This document shows positions 3,915 through 10,771 of a stretch of 10,956 nt of DNA, in pieces; the stretch's first letter is position 1; each line of letters begins with the position of its first letter. The position numbers and the translations under genes were made by a program. The stretch lies in IMG/VR virus record IMGVR_UViG_2639762982_000012; one strand, 5' to 3'. Source of the stretch: a virus (lineage: Duplodnaviria > Heunggongvirae > Uroviricota > Caudoviricetes). The notes under the pieces are model-generated. The model searched no databases. It saw nothing but the letters and a program-made list of their open reading frames with translations, and was not told where the DNA came from.

Positions 3915-5621
3915 TTACTCAGAGTCACCGGCATCAATCGTGTCGCCGCTAATGAAGTTAAGCCCGCCTTTTTTGGCCATTGTCAGCGTTACACGAGTGA
4001 AGTAATCAGCGCCGTTGCGTGGGTGCATATCGTTGATAGCCGAACCCCACAGCGTGGTACGGTTGACCAGCGCCGGAGTGGTCGGATGCTGGAACGGGAT
4101 GGCCGGGACAGCATCACCAGTCACGAAGCCTGCTTTACCCGGATTTTCATCACGGACGTAGCACAGCACATCCATCGAGCTGAACTGAATGTTCTCTGTC
4201 GTTAAGTTCTTACAAATACCAGCAGGTACTTCGTACACTTTCACGTTACCGAACAGGGTACCGATGTAGTGAACATACGGAGTCTGGATATAGTCTTCGG
4301 CTGGCTGGAAGAAATCCTTCGGCAACTGTTTGAAGAAAGATGCTGCATCAGCACCAGCAAACATCCCCATCGCACCAGAAGATTTAACGCGCTCAATAAT
4401 GTCGCGATATACAGTCTGGAATTTGCCACGAATGATGGTTGCCCATACATCAAAGGACTGGTTAACCGGCAGAGCGATGTCAAAGGTGTCGGTCGCAAGA
4501 GTACGCCAGATCATGATGCGAAGACGCAGCATATCCTGTTCATGAGACAGGTATTCCTTCAGGGTGCGGAACTGTAGGGAACCCAGGTCCAGACCAAATT
4601 CACGCTGTGCTTCATACGCCGCCTGTACCGTGTGCTCAGCCGCGATAACGAACTGGCTTGGGAACAGGGTGTATTTCTTCATTTCGTGGTTGATCAGCGG
4701 GATCAGCTCAGGAGCGGCTTCAATATTGATTTCCGTCTCAATTGCGATCTCAGTGCCTTTATCCGGCGCTTTGGAGAACGACAGGGCAATCTGACCAATG
4801 TTGTAGTTCAGAGAGCAGGTAACAGTGATTTGCTCACCAGCAGCATTAGTAAACGAGTGAAGTAGGCTGCCGGAACCGTTATCAACAACAGACTTAATAC
4901 GGTTAACGTAGATGTTAGTACGACCTTTTCGGATTGGTACATTCTGGCCTTCGAAGTCTTCCATCTTGAAGGTTGCGGTTTTGCTGGTGCCATCGGAGCT
5001 TGCCACCAGCACATAGCGGCGACGTAACTGGCTGTACACACCGACGGATTGCATGTCCAGAACATCACCAGCAGCATAAGAACCAAAAGAGGAACCTGCC
5101 ACGTTAAAGACTTCATAGATGTCGGACTGGTCACGCGTAACCGGAATGAAGGTACACGCATCAGCGGTAGCTGCCCCCAACTGAACAGGCAGGATCATCG
5201 CGAGGAATAAAGGCAGACGCATAACACCGTCAGAAACGCTCATCATCTCTGCTGCGACGGATTCCAGCATCGCTTTATTAGTGGCATCCATGCTATTGCG
5301 GGTGGACTCAATCAGGCAGTTTTCCAGCGTCTGGTGGCAGGAGGCCAGAATTTCCGGACGCGGCATAGATTTATGTGCTGCGGCGTAGTCAGCCAGTGCA
5401 CTTGCCCACGCTGTAGCGATTTGAGCGGTGGCATTATCAGAGATACCCGCAAAAACCGGGTCTTTACGTGCAGCTTCAAGGATAGATGCGGCACGCGCGG
5501 CATCATCTTTAATGAATTGGTTATCAGTACCGAACTGCGCAGTGCTTGCCCAGCCAAGCACAGCTTTAGAGCGTTTTGCGATATCTGCAATACGATTCTG
5601 GTATTCGCGTAAGTTACTCAA
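3915..5621 (-). CDS. Major capsid (head) protein precursor, ~568 aa, with an Ala-rich helical N-terminal domain; TTG start
   Basis: The frame is open from 5642, but the only good RBS is AAGGAAG 6 nt before the TTG at 5619-5621; the next in-frame ATG is about 85 codons further in. The first ~110 residues are Ala-rich and helical, like a scaffold/delta domain that is cleaved off. Sits upstream of the sheath gene and next to parS. Size matches my recollection of the ~62 kDa P1 gp23 precursor. Confidence 0.65.
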   Translation of the reverse strand: MSNLREYQNRIADIAKRSKAVLGWASTAQFGTDNQFIKDDAARAASILEAARKDPVFAGISDNATAQIATAWASALADYAAAHKSMPRPEILASCHQTLENCLIESTRNSMDATNKAMLESVAAEMMSVSDGVMRLPLFLAMILPVQLGAATADACTFIPVTRDQSDIYEVFNVAGSSFGSYAAGDVLDMQSVGVYSQLRRRYVLVASSDGTSKTATFKMEDFEGQNVPIRKGRTNIYVNRIKSVVDNGSGSLLHSFTNAAGEQITVTCSLNYNIGQIALSFSKAPDKGTEIAIETEINIEAAPELIPLINHEMKKYTLFPSQFVIAAEHTVQAAYEAQREFGLDLGSLQFRTLKEYLSHEQDMLRLRIMIWRTLATDTFDIALPVNQSFDVWATIIRGKFQTVYRDIIERVKSSGAMGMFAGADAASFFKQLPKDFFQPAEDYIQTPYVHYIGTLFGNVKVYEVPAGICKNLTTENIQFSSMDVLCYVRDENPGKAGFVTGDAVPAIPFQHPTTPALVNRTTLWGSAINDMHPRNGADYFTRVTLTMAKKGGLNFISGDTIDAGDSE

Positions 5622-5846: not shown

Positions 5847-6848
5847 TTAAGGCTTCGGCTTTTTATCGAGGCTCTTTCTAAGGATATGCCCAATCATCCT
5901 GTCGAGTTCTTCCTGTAGCTCTTTTGAAAGTCGATTAAACTCATAAGAAAATGCACGGCCTTTCACGCGCTTCCTTGCAAAGCGATCCTTGTCCTCAAAT
6001 TTCCATAATTCAGTAACTACGGACTTATCTTTAGAACCTTTATCCGTGAGTAGTGAGGCTTCCTTTGTTATCAAGCGCAGGATTTTATTTTTAACTTCAT
6101 CTTCGGCCATTTCTTCAATGGATAAGATGTCGTTTATTTCCGGGGATATATTTTGAATAAGCTGATCAAACTCTAAATTCTTGTTCCCCATTTCGTCGCC
6201 AACAGCACAAAGCGTTTTGTAGTCCGAAAAGGTTAATTCCGACTGCACAGGGAAAAGGGCGACTAATTCTTCCGGAGCACTCGCTGCCTGGAGAGCACGC
6301 GTGACCTTCGCCTGAGACAGCCCTTCTTTGGCTGCAATATCCTTCTGACTCATCCCATCATTTTTCATTCGCATCAAACGCAGACCTATTTCTCGAATGC
6401 TGTGCTGCAATGCTGTCTGAACGTCTTTCGCTAAATTTAGCGCTTCCTGAACGCTGATCTCCTGGTCCGTGACTAAAACCCGCAACCCTACGTTCTCTAA
6501 GATGGCAGAAGCTCGACGCCGGGAACCATCCAAAATTTCAATTTTCCCTGTTGCCCGTCTAACACCTATTGCAGGGTAAAATTGCTGATGCTTAATAGTG
6601 CTTCGGATACTTTTTAATGATTTTGGCGTAAGAGATGCCTGGTCACGCCCGTTGTTATGCTGATCAACAAAGGTATCGCTTTCTACCTGGTTCGGAGGTA
6701 TTACCTCTTCAATAAATGTGGCCTGGCGACCAGTTGATAACTTGAATACCTGCTCGACTCGATCGCCAGAGGCTGAAGAACTATCAAATCCGCTTAATAT
6801 TGAAGGATTAAGGGTTCGCCCAATTGTTGGTCTGTTTTTCTTTGACAT
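5847..6848 (-). CDS. parB: ParB centromere-binding partition protein, 333 aa
   Basis: ATG at 6846-6848 with GGAG upstream, 16 nt after the parA stop. Length equals P1 ParB (333 aa). Followed immediately by parS. Confidence 0.9.
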   Translation of the reverse strand: MSKKNRPTIGRTLNPSILSGFDSSSASGDRVEQVFKLSTGRQATFIEEVIPPNQVESDTFVDQHNNGRDQASLTPKSLKSIRSTIKHQQFYPAIGVRRATGKIEILDGSRRRASAILENVGLRVLVTDQEISVQEALNLAKDVQTALQHSIREIGLRLMRMKNDGMSQKDIAAKEGLSQAKVTRALQAASAPEELVALFPVQSELTFSDYKTLCAVGDEMGNKNLEFDQLIQNISPEINDILSIEEMAEDEVKNKILRLITKEASLLTDKGSKDKSVVTELWKFEDKDRFARKRVKGRAFSYEFNRLSKELQEELDRMIGHILRKSLDKKPKP

Positions 6849-6864
6849 GGGGGTTTCTTACTCC

Positions 6865-8061
6865 TCAGTTAGATCTGATAAATTCAATACGGTCAAAAAC
6901 TGCTTTAGCAAAATCTTCCGCGGCAATTCGCGCGTTCTTCAATGCATCAGCACTACCAACATACGTTGCCGGGTTAGCTGAAATAACAGTGTCAAAAGAC
7001 TCGCCGCAACGTTCAAAACCGTCAAGGCGAGGGAGGACGACATCGAGCATATCCCCACCGAACACTTCTTTAGCCAGGCTATGGCAATACTTATGATCTG
7101 CCTTGTTACTCAACTTGGACATAAAACCAATGTTAGTCGCAAGCTGGCACTCGCAGCCTTCATCCGAAATGAGTTTCACCAACTCAGGAAGGCGGGCAAC
7201 GTATTTAAGCGATGAGTGGAAATCGACAGTTGCTGGCGGCAGAGGTGTAAACAGTATATTGGCCGAGGCCAAAGCATTTTTCAGGAAGGCGTCAAGGTGA
7301 GGACCACTATCAACGAGGATAAAATCATAATCGCTCTTCAGCTTATCAATCACATTTTCTTTCAGGACAGCATGGATGTTCTGACCCGGTAGATGCTCAT
7401 TGCACAGCTCTCTCCAATCGGATGCAATAAAGGCATCGTCAATCGACGCAGGCATAACGTCAACCCCAGGTACAACAGAAGGAACAATAAACTCCTCTAA
7501 CAGCTCTTCACGGCTTACATTCTGCAACATAGCCTGTGCAGATGTTGCGTTTACGATACCAATAGAGTGTTTATGGCTTAAAAACATCGTTGCTGAAGAT
7601 TGCGGATCAAGGTCAATAACCAGAATCCTTAAATCTTCCATCAGAAGATGAGGGTGAGCACGCATTGCATGCGCCAGAGAAACCGTCGATACAGTTTTTG
7701 ACACACCGCCTTTAAGATTGGAGATGAAAATCACATACGCTTCGCTGTAGCGATCCCGGTATTTTGGCACTCCGCGATGTTCATATATGTCAATGATGTT
7801 CTGAATTGACATCGCATATTTCATTGAAGAGCCAGCAGGGCGCTTATCGAAAACATAACCCTTTTCTTCCATTTCACTTACAGCATAGTCAACGTTCGCT
7901 CGAGTCAGTAGAGGCAATTTTGCCAGTGCCGCTTTCGCATAGACCTGGTAAAACTCGTTCGCGTGTAGCTCATCCTTTTGCAACTGTACTTGTTCAGTCA
8001 GAACATTGAGCATTCTATTTGCTCTTTGAGCAACCTTGTGAAGCTGGCTGGAATCACTCAT
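6865..8061 (-). CDS. parA: ParA partition ATPase (type Ia, with N-terminal regulatory extension), 398 aa
   Basis: Deviant Walker A motif KGGVSKT in ISNLKGGVSKTVS. The long N-terminal extension is typical of autoregulatory type Ia ParA/SopA. Length equals P1 ParA (398 aa). AAGGA RBS before the ATG at 8059-8061. Confidence 0.92.
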   Translation of the reverse strand: MSDSSQLHKVAQRANRMLNVLTEQVQLQKDELHANEFYQVYAKAALAKLPLLTRANVDYAVSEMEEKGYVFDKRPAGSSMKYAMSIQNIIDIYEHRGVPKYRDRYSEAYVIFISNLKGGVSKTVSTVSLAHAMRAHPHLLMEDLRILVIDLDPQSSATMFLSHKHSIGIVNATSAQAMLQNVSREELLEEFIVPSVVPGVDVMPASIDDAFIASDWRELCNEHLPGQNIHAVLKENVIDKLKSDYDFILVDSGPHLDAFLKNALASANILFTPLPPATVDFHSSLKYVARLPELVKLISDEGCECQLATNIGFMSKLSNKADHKYCHSLAKEVFGGDMLDVVLPRLDGFERCGESFDTVISANPATYVGSADALKNARIAAEDFAKAVFDRIEFIRSN

Positions 8062-8200: not shown

Positions 8201-8222
8201 CAAAAAAGCCCCGTTCAGGGGC
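8201..8222 (-). terminator. Rho-independent terminator immediately after the inserted module
   Basis: Minus strand: GCCCC-TGAAC-GGGGC followed by TTTTTT. It lies 8 nt after the stop (8230-8232) of the 86-codon ORF and upstream of the parA promoter. Confidence 0.75.
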
Positions 8223-8229
8223 ATCAGTG

Positions 8230-8490
8230 TTATTTGCTAAGAGCAGCGAATAATCGTTCGAAATCGATAGTATCTATAGCACGCGTAAGCGCCGGAAGTT
8301 CAGCCTCAAAGTACCCATGTCGATCGTAAAAGATGGGACCGAAGAGCGAGGCATGTTGGATTCTACTTCGCCCCAGCCCGGACACACAGTTAAGCCCATT
8401 ACCGGCTAAAAGGCTAAAAAACTTCTCTGGATTATCGTGGTAAAGCTGGGAATCAATGGTGGCGGTTAACTCTTCCATAGGGAAGCACAC
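8230..8490 (-). CDS. 86-codon ORF; probably the C-terminal part of the upstream GIY-YIG/T5orf172-like gene (same frame, separated by one TAA)
   Basis: Begins with GTG and has no convincing SD. It is in the same frame as 8512..9039 and separated from it by a single TAA (8512-8514) plus 7 sense codons (YPWDTGR). No recognisable motif. Confidence 0.4.
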   Translation of the reverse strand: MCFPMEELTATIDSQLYHDNPEKFFSLLAGNGLNCVSGLGRSRIQHASLFGPIFYDRHGYFEAELPALTRAIDTIDFERLFAALSK

Positions 8491-8511
8491 CCGCCCTGTA
8501 TCCCAGGGATA

Positions 8512-9039
8512 TTAAGTCCGAAGCATAAACATTGCTTTCAGCAATTCACACTGAGCGCGGATCGCGTCCGGTTCATAGCCAGATATGGAGACATAAGCCA
8601 CGTCCCTCATTCCTGCGTCATCTTTGAAAGTCACGATAGAAGTAACATCCAGCTCTTTTTCGAAAGAGCAAGCAGCATCTACTGGACGCTGAAGTAAATC
8701 ATTCGACTTAATGCGCTCGAGAATCCCTCCCCACATATCATTTAGATATTCGATATGAGCCAAAACCTTATCAAGACACTCTCGTGTAAACCATTCAGTA
8801 TGCCCGCCACCTGCGCTTTTCTCCCACGGCGCATTCCAGGGGAAAAAGGTTGCGTGTAAAGCCCGCTCAAGATTAACCATTGCCAAACGCGTACCACGAT
8901 AGACCCGTGAAAGCGCAAAATCGGGACTCACTTGTAGCCCTTTAAACCGTGCCAATGGACCACATGAAATGCCGATTTTAAAAGTATCTCCGTTCTCCGG
9001 CACCAGAACGTAGAGGTAGTGTTGTTTCTCTTCTTGCAT
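8512..9039 (-). CDS. GIY-YIG superfamily (T5orf172-like) domain protein, 175 aa as written; possibly truncated by a nonsense codon
   Basis: N-terminal YLYVL-(10 aa)-FKIGIS-(6 aa)-R ... ALHATFF ... GGGHTEWF reproduces the GIY / YIG / Arg / Glu spacing of GIY-YIG-type domains in the T5orf172 / MUG113 style. ATG at 9037-9039 directly abuts the incA-like iterons. Weak SD. Confidence 0.6.
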   Translation of the reverse strand: MQEEKQHYLYVLVPENGDTFKIGISCGPLARFKGLQVSPDFALSRVYRGTRLAMVNLERALHATFFPWNAPWEKSAGGGHTEWFTRECLDKVLAHIEYLNDMWGGILERIKSNDLLQRPVDAACSFEKELDVTSIVTFKDDAGMRDVAYVSISGYEPDAIRAQCELLKAMFMLRT

Positions 9040-9073
9040 ATCAATACCACTGCTTGATGAGAACCGCGCAAAT

Positions 9074-9330
9074 GTTGACTATGCGCGAAAGTTAATGTGA
9101 ATAGTTGACTATGCGCGATGTGACTACAGTCAAAAGTTGACTGTAGTCGATTTAACTCCACCAAAAATCGACTATGTAAGATATTGTCGGGAGAAACGTT
9201 GACTATACGCGATGAAATGACCCTAAAAGCCATCTCAATAGCGACTTGCAGAATATTGACGCCAGCAAAAATCCACCAGCGTCAACGAATGTCGCCTATA
9301 GTCAACTTCTCGCTATCGCATATAGTCAAT
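9074..9330. repeat. incA-like iteron array (RepA binding sites, both orientations) downstream of repA
   Basis: At least seven copies of a ~15-bp motif, GTTGACTATRCGCGA. Forward copies at 9074-9088, 9104-9118 and 9198-9212. Inverted copies at 9291-9306 and 9316-9330. Degenerate copies near 9168-9180 and 9255-9289. A perfect 13-3-13 palindrome, TGACTACAGTCAA-AAG-TTGACTGTAGTCA, spans 9121-9149. Confidence 0.8.
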
Positions 9331-9331
9331 A

Positions 9332-10216
9332 TTATGGATTGCGCTTATGGATCTGGAAGCCGATTTTCCTGCCGTTTTTTATCTCTGAAAATTTAAGATA
9401 TTCAATAGCTTCCAAATCTTTCATAGCTTTTCTGATAACGCTATTTTGCACGCTAACGGATGATTTGAGATTAAGCCTTGCTCTAAGGCGCTCAATGCTG
9501 ACAGGTGCCGGGTTGGCGGGTAGAGCCTCAAAGAATGTATACAGCACCTTGGCCGTCTCTTTGCGCCCGAGCTTATCCAGCATCTTCAGCTTCAGGATTC
9601 GCTTATAGTCAACATAGTAAAGTTCAGATAGCTGTTTCTGCGGCTGGATCTCGATAACATCAAGCTCGGTATTCAGGCTGCTATATGCCAACAAGTTGAC
9701 GTTAATGTTATTGAGATGACCTTTTGCCGCCGGGAAGCGGAATTTGACAACTGTCTGCTGAATGCGTGTCAGAGAGTCATCAATACTTTTACGGAACGCC
9801 TTTGAAAGGCGCTTACGTGGATAGCCGCATCGATCGGCAAACTCGGAGAATGGCAGGGTGATTATGCCGTCATCATCAGGTGCGTAGTCAAACAACGCGG
9901 AGGTTATGCCCACCCACACCTTAAAATCAGTATCCATATCCAGGCGTGGACCATGTATTTCAATTCCCTCATAGCCTTCCTGCTCAACAATTTTGAGGCT
10001 TGATAGTTCTTCGGTTGCGTTCGTTGTGTTTGTAGTAACTGACGATCCGCGACGTAGTGCCACATTGGTAGATTTTAAGGTTGGCACAAACACACCTAAG
10101 CGCAACAAAGCGATGGGTTGTATAGTGCTATTGTTATTGGGTTTCAGGCTGTGGATTTCTCCTGTATTTCCTGCAACTTCTTCAACGCTAAGGAAGCCTT
10201 TATTTTCTTCCGGCAT
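9332..10216 (-). CDS. repA: RepA replication initiator (iteron-binding), ~294 aa
   Basis: Flanked on both sides by iterons. Start chosen at the ATG at 10214-10216, which has GGAG 8 nt upstream; the longer frame from the TTG at 10273 lacks an RBS. Internal motifs (QPIALLRLGVFVP, GPRLDMDTDFK) resemble what I recall of the P1 RepA family. P1 RepA is 286 aa. Confidence 0.85.
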   Translation of the reverse strand: MPEENKGFLSVEEVAGNTGEIHSLKPNNNSTIQPIALLRLGVFVPTLKSTNVALRRGSSVTTNTTNATEELSSLKIVEQEGYEGIEIHGPRLDMDTDFKVWVGITSALFDYAPDDDGIITLPFSEFADRCGYPRKRLSKAFRKSIDDSLTRIQQTVVKFRFPAAKGHLNNINVNLLAYSSLNTELDVIEIQPQKQLSELYYVDYKRILKLKMLDKLGRKETAKVLYTFFEALPANPAPVSIERLRARLNLKSSVSVQNSVIRKAMKDLEAIEYLKFSEIKNGRKIGFQIHKRNP

Positions 10217-10295
10217 CGTGGTTTCTCCATATGTGGCGCGGCCTGGCGTCATCTGGATTGCAGTTATCAACAACTGTGAATAGTCAGGCTCTAAA

Positions 10296-10397
10296 ATCGC
10301 GTACAGTCAATGTTTCTGTCGCGTATAGTCAACAATAAATCGCGTGCAGTCAACAATAAATCGTGCACAGTCAACATAAAATCGCGTATAGTCAATG
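10296..10397. repeat. incC-like iterons: five direct repeats at 21-22 bp spacing between the origin and repA
   Basis: TCGCGTACAGTCAATG (10297), TCGCGTATAGTCAACA (10319), TCGCGTGCAGTCAACA (10340), TCGTGCACAGTCAACA (10361), TCGCGTATAGTCAATG (10382). Same motif as the incA-like array, all in one orientation, two helical turns apart. Expected to overlap the repA promoter. Confidence 0.85.
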
Positions 10398-10436
10398 TTG
10401 ATCCCATTTCAGGCCAGAAATGGCGCGGCTTACAGC

Positions 10437-10510
10437 GATCCGGGATCTTCTTTGGATCTTCCTAGGTTCTCTTTAGGATCTGTTTATTGGATCTATGCTG
10501 TGGATAAGTT
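10437..10510. other. oriR-like replication origin core: five clustered GATC (Dam) sites plus a DnaA box
   Basis: GATC at 10437, 10444, 10455, 10477 and 10490 within ~57 bp, in RGGATCT-like heptamers. DnaA box TGTGGATAA at 10499-10507. One-mismatch DnaA boxes on the other side of the iterons (TTATCAACA 10264-10272, TGTGAATAG 10275-10283). Matches the known P1 oriR layout of Dam-methylated heptamers plus DnaA boxes next to incC. Confidence 0.7.
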
Positions 10511-10771
10511 GAATAAACCGGCCAATAAAGCCGGTTGGAAGGAAGCCGTATTATTCTACGCTCTCGATAAGAAGACCATGTTCATCGATAGGAATTTAAA
10601 TCCCAAAAAGATTAAAAAAACACCCAAAAACGGATGTTTATTCAACACTGCCTGCGTGCCATGAGTGCACCGCCATCAATTAAATGGATCTTATCGAGTG
10701 ATACTGTATATCACTGATGGTTTTTTTACTCCATTCCCCTGAAAATGGACGCAACTTCCCCGATGCGGCTC

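Follow-up and report, generated by a model that had tools for sequence, protein, structure and literature searches.

A minor nonsense allele in a T5orf172-like accessory gene beside the replicon of P1-like phage-plasmids

RESULTS

A nuclease-like gene between repA and parA

The DNA analysed in this work, a stretch of 10,956 nucleotides referred to as the window throughout, belongs, as judged from its sequence, to a p0111-type P1-like phage-plasmid of the SJ46/RCS47/JL22 lineage. Plasmid unnamed6 of E. coli ETEC1731 matches the region at 100% identity, and hundreds of E. coli plasmids, as well as the P1-like phages SJ46, RCS47, JL22, phi456 and Ro157c2YLVW, match it at 98-99%. Its elements are arranged in the order origin iterons, repA, second iteron array, a nuclease-like gene (here called X), parA and parB; the protein encoded by parB is 100% identical to P1 ParB. 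The features of the locus are as follows.

6865..8061, minus strand: parA, the downstream neighbour of X (protein 100% identical to P1 ParA)
8208..8222, minus strand: terminator-like hairpin and T-run, directly after the full frame
8230..9039, minus strand: whole gene X (JL22 gp57, RCS47 gp090), broken at codon 176; same as the copy in NZ_CP122822
8233..8658, minus strand: C-terminal winged-helix-type domain (predicted; residues 128-269 when intact), which the stop divides
8350..8493, minus strand: beta-alpha-alpha-alpha-beta-beta winged-helix motif, residues 183-230, wholly downstream of the stop (secondary structure of the model)
8512..8514, minus strand: premature TAA at codon 176 (AAA, Lys, when intact), from per-site differences and allele counts
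8515..9039, minus strand: retained 175-aa product, made up of the nuclease domain, the linker and the initial third of the C-domain (PGAP WP_001154681.1, a GIY-YIG nuclease family protein)
8785..9018, minus strand: T5orf172 / GIY-YIG-like catalytic core, residues 8-85
9070..9330, both orientations: incA-like iteron array of the TTGACTATGCGCGA type in the repA-X interval, at the position of P1 incA
9332..10216, minus strand: repA of p0111 type, the upstream neighbour of X (Rep3, WH1+WH2; 41% identical to P1 RepA)

The two iteron arrays (10292-10416 and 9070-9330) share a unit of about 15 nt, TCGCGTATAGTCAAC, which is also present inside repA at 9597-9613. The array upstream of repA, with five copies at a spacing of 21 bp, resembles an origin. 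The repA-X interval contains six copies or more, facing either way, the last of which ends about 30 bp before the start codon of X. Thus, binding of RepA may affect the expression of X.

Translation of the minus strand from 9039 to 8230 yielded a single frame of 269 codons with a final TAA at 8230-8232, whose sole internal stop is the TAA at 8512-8514, codon 176. In the mechanical ORF list this frame appears as two minus-strand ORFs, one at 9039..8512 with an ATG start, 175 aa in length and ending in the TAA at 8512-8514, the other at 8490..8230 with a GTG start and 86 aa. Both are in the same frame (9039-8490 = 549 = 3 x 183) and are separated after the stop by seven sense codons (TAT CCC TGG GAT ACA GGG CGG), so that the translation across the break reads ...MFMLRT*YPWDTGRVCFPMEEL... 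Base-by-base comparison with relatives identified the change at codon 176 as A to T at gene position 526, which turns AAA (Lys) into TAA and is the sole difference from the intact alleles at this codon. One private missense change, F236I, is present in the downstream half of the window copy.

A preliminary description of this DNA had noted that the downstream ORF starts with GTG and lacks a Shine-Dalgarno sequence. The GTG start was confirmed, whereas a weak, purine-rich AGGG does lie a few bases upstream of it. Furthermore, an ATG is located at 8478, 11 codons past the stop, and PGAP calls an ORF of 82 aa there in some of the stop-carrying records. In intact alleles the bases of the GTG, the ATG and the AGGG are ordinary coding sequence. 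The terminator-like hairpin with its T-run (8222-8208) directly follows the end of the 269-codon frame, and a search of the window for hairpins and T-runs revealed no terminator-like site after the premature stop.

Homologues span both halves of the interrupted frame

Both halves of the frame matched the same PHROG profile, phrog_2876 (length 269), residues 1-175 with an E-value of 3.6e-127 and residues 177-269 with an E-value of 1.9e-58. In RCS47 and Ro157c2YLVW the matching 810 nt are annotated as one CDS without a stop. Thus, the two ORFs are not juxtaposed by chance, and the earlier view of the locus as one 269-codon frame with a single in-frame TAA holds: the pieces lie seven codons apart in the same frame and one profile covers both. 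Among the full-length loci retrieved from IMG/VR, 35 of 42 are uninterrupted, and TAA at codon 176 was found in none of the 42.

When 1.84 billion representative proteins were searched exhaustively with HMMER, only three diverged full-length relatives emerged, all remaining matches covering the N-domain only. The three are 44%, 28% and 25% identical to X. All are encoded by one uninterrupted ORF (270-296 aa), can be aligned to X over both halves and occupy the rep - X - parA - parB slot of a P1-like element. None of them has a stop at codon 176; in the 44% identical homologue the lysine at this codon is kept (REKYPWD). A scan of GTDB representative genomes with an alignment of four sequences added just one Escherichia copy and one unrelated T5orf172 match. 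As the intact homologues of 269 aa cover both halves, the downstream piece is not an independent gene, as had been suspected. It had also been proposed that intact proteins of about 270 aa spanning both halves would speak for a nonsense disruption, and these were found. The opposite arrangement, a protein that naturally ends after 175 aa followed by a conserved separate gene of 86 aa, was looked for among the homologues and did not occur.

The 44% identical homologue is encoded at 6001-6936 of the Logan contig ERR2144811_21 (L007). Its called product has 311 aa, of which the first 41 residues overlap the iteron array; comparison with the aligned family points to Met42 as the true start, which would give 270 aa.

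The stop is a genuine but minor allele

Allele counts were obtained from 5426 complete E. coli genomes with 33-mers designed so that each 28-base seed covers the variable base. TAA was present in 7 records and AAA in 391, i.e. about 2% of the copies carry the stop and about 98% do not. The seven TAA carriers are independent complete assemblies, with a porcine source in Belgium and human sources in China and Spain, and the allele occurs on at least four haplotypes, set apart by 2-6 further differences within the gene. For the exact 175-aa product, 264 contigs of several sources are on record; the 82-aa product appears as a called protein on 2 contigs only. TAA is a real, persistent and spread, yet minor allele. 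We had considered that it might be the majority state, the top megablast matches being annotated only as 'GIY-YIG nuclease family protein'; this was ruled out by the 33-mer counts.

In the same complete genomes, 7 of the 394 places matched by the 33-mer of the intact allele are located on chromosomes and not on plasmids, presumably in P1-like elements that have integrated or were mis-assigned.

The stop falls inside a predicted winged-helix domain

Residues 8-85 of X match PF10544 (T5orf172) with 28.7 bits, the Pfam gathering score being 20, and the 44%, 28% and 25% identical homologues likewise match T5orf172. No variation was seen in 15 homologues at Y10, K21, G23, R31, H62 and E82, and from the alignment pattern the motif residues appear to be equivalent to R27/E75 of I-TevI. 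The intact protein was modelled by AF2 with a pLDDT of 83.6, and the GIY-YIG alpha/beta fold was found in residues 1-118 of the model. By profile, motif and predicted fold, X is thus assigned to the T5orf172/GIY-YIG family. Scans of the intact protein with PADLOC and NCBIfam gave no match.

A short linker joins the N-domain (about residues 1-118) to a C-domain (residues 128-269), which appeared as one compact domain when modelled separately (pTM 0.71). In a comparison of this domain with PDB structures, the best structural neighbours were winged-helix DNA binders. The oriT-binding protein TcpK scored 5.9 and the WH1 domains of iteron-type initiators scored 5.3-5.5 (MSBI1.176), 4.8-5.0 (RepE), 4.6-5.0 (pPS10 RepA) and 4.4-4.8 (RctB), scores which do not separate the Rep WH1 domains from other winged-helix proteins. 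The winged-helix fold of residues 128-269 is well supported by the model, unlike a particular kinship with Rep WH1, and the domain presumably binds DNA. At the level of sequence, the C-domain alone matched nothing in Pfam at E-values up to 10, Rep domains included, and showed no similarity to the RepA of the window by BLASTP (E 14). A recent origin of the C-domain from the initiator of the same plasmid was discarded on account of this BLASTP result.

In the model, the stop lies in the middle of the C-domain, right after the helix of residues 157-172 and before the winged-helix motif of residues 183-230. The AAA to TAA transversion ends translation after 175 residues. The resulting product would keep the catalytic core (Y10, K21/G23, R31, E82) and would lose the winged-helix motif together with more than half of the C-domain. 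Since the break lies inside a single domain whose second half is lost, we infer from the model that K176* is a loss-of-function, pseudogene-like allele, the truncated protein being presumably no longer able to find its DNA target. With all conserved catalytic residues kept, the 175-aa product could, on the other hand, still be active in an altered or untargeted manner. If translation re-initiated at a low level at the GTG or the ATG, 7-11 codons past the stop, an incomplete fragment of 82-86 aa would result.

X is weakly constrained and repeatedly inactivated

The variable sites of X and of its neighbours were compared in the same IMG/VR loci. X contains 34 synonymous, 35 missense and 4 nonsense variable sites, the latter at codons 68, 112, 176 and 228, as compared to 48 synonymous, 3 missense and no nonsense sites in repA and 71 synonymous, 1 missense and no nonsense sites in parA. 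From codon content, about 5 nonsense sites per 34-35 synonymous sites are expected under neutrality, against the 4 observed in X. Missense changes are moderately depleted, below the neutral expectation (pN/pS about 0.37). X is weakly constrained, and its nonsense alleles segregate at a roughly neutral rate. Nevertheless, X is not simply junk, as missense changes stay below the neutral expectation and intact genes are found over deep divergence; its loss may have a cost in some settings.

In the complete E. coli genomes, K176* (7 records) is outnumbered by S112* (28 records) and by Q228*, the allele of SJ46 (13 records); together the three account for about 12% of approximately 400 carriers. 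The W68* allele was absent from these genomes. In addition, the phage genome 673R5 contains two 1-nt deletions, i.e. frameshifts, in X. K176* thus has no fewer than three counterparts of independent origin among the nonsense alleles of the lineage and is in kind an ordinary allele, presumably of the loss-of-function type. It is tolerated because X is dispensable for plasmid maintenance and weakly constrained.

Two further records show related changes. In L051 (IMGVR_UViG_2645727563_000002, 1501-1800) only residues 1-100 of X are matched, after which the sequence diverges completely; this is probably a rearrangement or an insertion inside X and thus a further independent disruption. In pEC6030_3 (L002), a carrier of the TAA allele, an upfA-like neighbour upstream of repA (4652-5044) is interrupted by a stop and flagged by PGAP as a pseudogene. 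In this sublineage, decay seems to affect the accessory genes near the replicon.

X lies at the right edge of an exchangeable replicon module

Comparison of the window with P1 revealed that 99% DNA identity begins at about 8163, just past the terminator of X. The repA-iteron-X block is unrelated to P1 or at most 41% identical, and a 79% match to P1 resumes upstream of the origin, which puts the left edge at about 10413-10585. This mosaic is the IncY/p0111 replicon swap described for JL22.

A similar situation was found for two of the elements with diverged X proteins, L007 and L055 (Logan contigs ERR2144811_21 and SRR6505940_35). Their ParA proteins are 100% identical, their ParB proteins 98% and the flanking genes 99%. 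Despite this backbone identity of 98-100%, Rep is only 39% and X only 27% identical between the two, and some 60 bp beyond the stop codon of X the DNA is again 98.5% identical. Since high identity resumes just past X both here and between the window and P1, origin, rep, iterons and X behave as a single exchangeable module that ends on the right with X.

The replicon modules of the two contigs differ, that of L007 being p0111-like and that of L055 being P1/IncY-like with an X of its own. Thus, X is not restricted to p0111 replicons. The RepA of L055 is 83% identical to P1 RepA. The interval that contains X measures 1018 bp in L055, as compared to 214 bp for the equivalent interval of P1, and no remnant of X was detected in the rep-par interval of P1 by tblastn with all four X proteins. 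Judging from these sequences, classical P1 resembles a variant, devoid of X, of an IncY type that carries it.

The iteron sequence is particular to each lineage. The window and L007 have the same iteron and Rep proteins that are 83% identical, and the N-domains of their X proteins are 58% identical but the C-domains only 33%. A shared iteron together with C-domains this different argues against X reading the iterons of its own plasmid and would fit a rapidly changing target specificity.

DISCUSSION

Origin of the interrupted frame

Taken as a whole, the data make it very likely that the two ORFs are one accessory gene cut by a nonsense change at K176. The preliminary description had left open a recent nonsense mutation, a sequencing error and a regulated read-through product. 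The first of these was borne out by the change of AAA to TAA at gene position 526.

An error of sequencing or assembly, with AAA and an intact gene in the real plasmid, would be in keeping with the difference of a single base from the common allele, and X in the deposited genome of phage 673R5, with its two 1-nt deletions, may itself contain errors. It is excluded for the window, however, by the presence of TAA in seven independent complete assemblies from three countries and on at least four haplotypes, and by the 264 contigs with the exact 175-aa product, and we give it practically no weight. Hardly more probable is a programmed or regulated read-through, in which the TAA would act as a recoding site and a short and a long product would be made in a set ratio. 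It is true that the frame past the stop has stayed open with little change, F236I being its one private missense change, but this is also expected of a young mutation. The stop is not conserved, being absent from about 98% of the copies and from all diverged homologues. TAA followed by T terminates translation efficiently in E. coli, and neither tRNA genes nor Rfam families were found within the 10,956-nt window. A functional split, in which the 175-aa nuclease and a re-initiated winged-helix piece of 82-86 aa work jointly or separately, is somewhat less remote and still improbable. In its favour, a GTG and an ATG follow the stop after 7 and 11 codons with the weak AGGG upstream, PGAP calls the 82-aa ORF in some records, and the allele has persisted long enough to be present on several haplotypes. 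On the other hand, the break is in the middle of what was modelled as one compact domain, so that neither piece would be complete; the split is conserved in no lineage, what could act as start signals is coding sequence where the gene is intact, and the 82-aa protein is hardly ever called.

The preliminary description had added that a truncated protein may be tolerated where the full-length nuclease is toxic. As a general statement, toxicity of the full-length protein is unsupported, as at least 85% of the copies are intact and intact genes occur in lineages as far as 25% identity. In a more restricted form, the full-length nuclease would be costly or toxic in some hosts, and knock-outs would be positively selected there. 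Such an adaptive inactivation is unlikely, although it has more to recommend it than the three rivals of the nonsense mutation above: four independent nonsense alleles exist, three of them reach an appreciable frequency (28, 13 and 7 genomes), and the flanking repA and parA are free of nonsense variants. However, four nonsense sites where about five are expected require no positive selection, the three counted alleles make up only about 12% of the copies, and the depletion of missense changes as well as the retention of intact genes down to 25% identity point in the other direction. We therefore regard K176* as a nonsense allele that segregates in a weakly constrained gene. In this respect it resembles ordinary nonsense pseudogenes in plasmid accessory genes, being a single-base minor allele with an open downstream frame and a shortened PGAP protein. 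There is no difference of substance between the two, and the finding as such is thus an ordinary one.

Relation of X to known nucleases and its possible role

The Seg proteins of phage T4 and I-TevI are GIY-YIG homing endonucleases of phages. Like such free-standing GIY-YIG/T5orf172 homing endonuclease genes (HEGs), X combines a terminal nuclease domain with a separate putative DNA-binding domain, is intergenic and adjoins essential maintenance genes, evolves fast and is frequently found in inactivated copies. It is also present in some and absent from other near-identical genomes, at a boundary of genetic exchange; this presence/absence polymorphism at a fixed intergenic site, typical of HEGs, was found between L055 and P1. 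Unlike phage HEGs, X sits in the plasmid-maintenance module of a phage-plasmid. From the GIY-YIG nucleases of the Slx1/UvrC type it differs by the lack of an Slx4-type partner, a RING domain and UvrC modules, with identities of 11-17%.

Free-standing GIY-YIG/T5orf172 HEGs, among them those of phage ICP1, are reported to sit beside essential genes at the borders of genetic exchange and to swap their DNA-binding domains; for most T5orf172 HEGs, zinc fingers of the CapR/DUF723 type are reported (PMC10448857). The binding part of X, in contrast, is a single winged-helix-type domain. In ICP1, the N-terminal domain of Odn (Gp88) is 42% identical to the RepA_N of PLE, by virtue of which Odn cuts the PLE origin (PMC8263062), and gp5 carries a RepA_N domain as well (PMC10448857). 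Like Odn and gp5, X may join a T5orf172 nuclease to a domain of the initiator kind, Rep WH1 domains being among the best structural neighbours of its modelled C-domain, although not set apart by score from other winged-helix proteins; it also adjoins iterons. However, the binding domain is N-terminal in Odn and C-terminal in X, and X has no detectable sequence similarity to its own RepA or to any Pfam Rep domain. Homology of the binding domain to an initiator, which characterizes Odn at the sequence level, was thus not found for X (BLASTP E 14; Pfam E-values up to 10).

By analogy with these systems, X would most likely be a free-standing nuclease of the homing type or directed against competitors, which travels with the ori-repA-iteron module and marks its edge, a role deduced only from architecture, presence or absence, and position. 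A more specific scenario, which we offer tentatively and consider rather doubtful, takes intact X to be a weapon or drive element, in which a winged helix of the Rep-WH1 kind steers the T5orf172 nuclease to rival P1-like plasmids. Its targets would be X-less alleles, such as the incA-Ppar interval of P1, or foreign origins. Cutting would then promote co-conversion of the ori-repA-iteron-X module and hence the swapping of IncY and p0111 replicons; alternatively, incompatible or competing phage-plasmids would be eliminated. The recurrent nonsense alleles would correspond to the degeneration phase in the life cycle of a homing gene. Should a homing-type or anti-replicon function of X prove true, it would provide a mechanism for replicon swapping and for the competition between phage-plasmids, and the natural K176*, S112* and Q228* alleles would serve as ready-made knock-outs for testing.

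X is a known but uncharacterised accessory nuclease gene, the interest of which lies in the behaviour of the gene more than in the mutation described here. It is the only fast-evolving and repeatedly inactivated gene in an otherwise extremely conserved plasmid-maintenance block, and it goes along with the replicon type in P1-like phage-plasmids, a group important for the carriage of ESBL genes. The interrupted frame itself is of minor importance and should be annotated as a disrupted gene and not as a 175-aa nuclease next to an 82-aa hypothetical protein. A further, minor annotation issue concerns positions 823-1404 of the window, where the longest ORF gives 193 aa from an ATG and PGAP calls a protein of 139 aa (WP_250113098.1) in the ETEC1731 plasmid (L001, 924-1343); this discrepancy is a matter of start-site choice.
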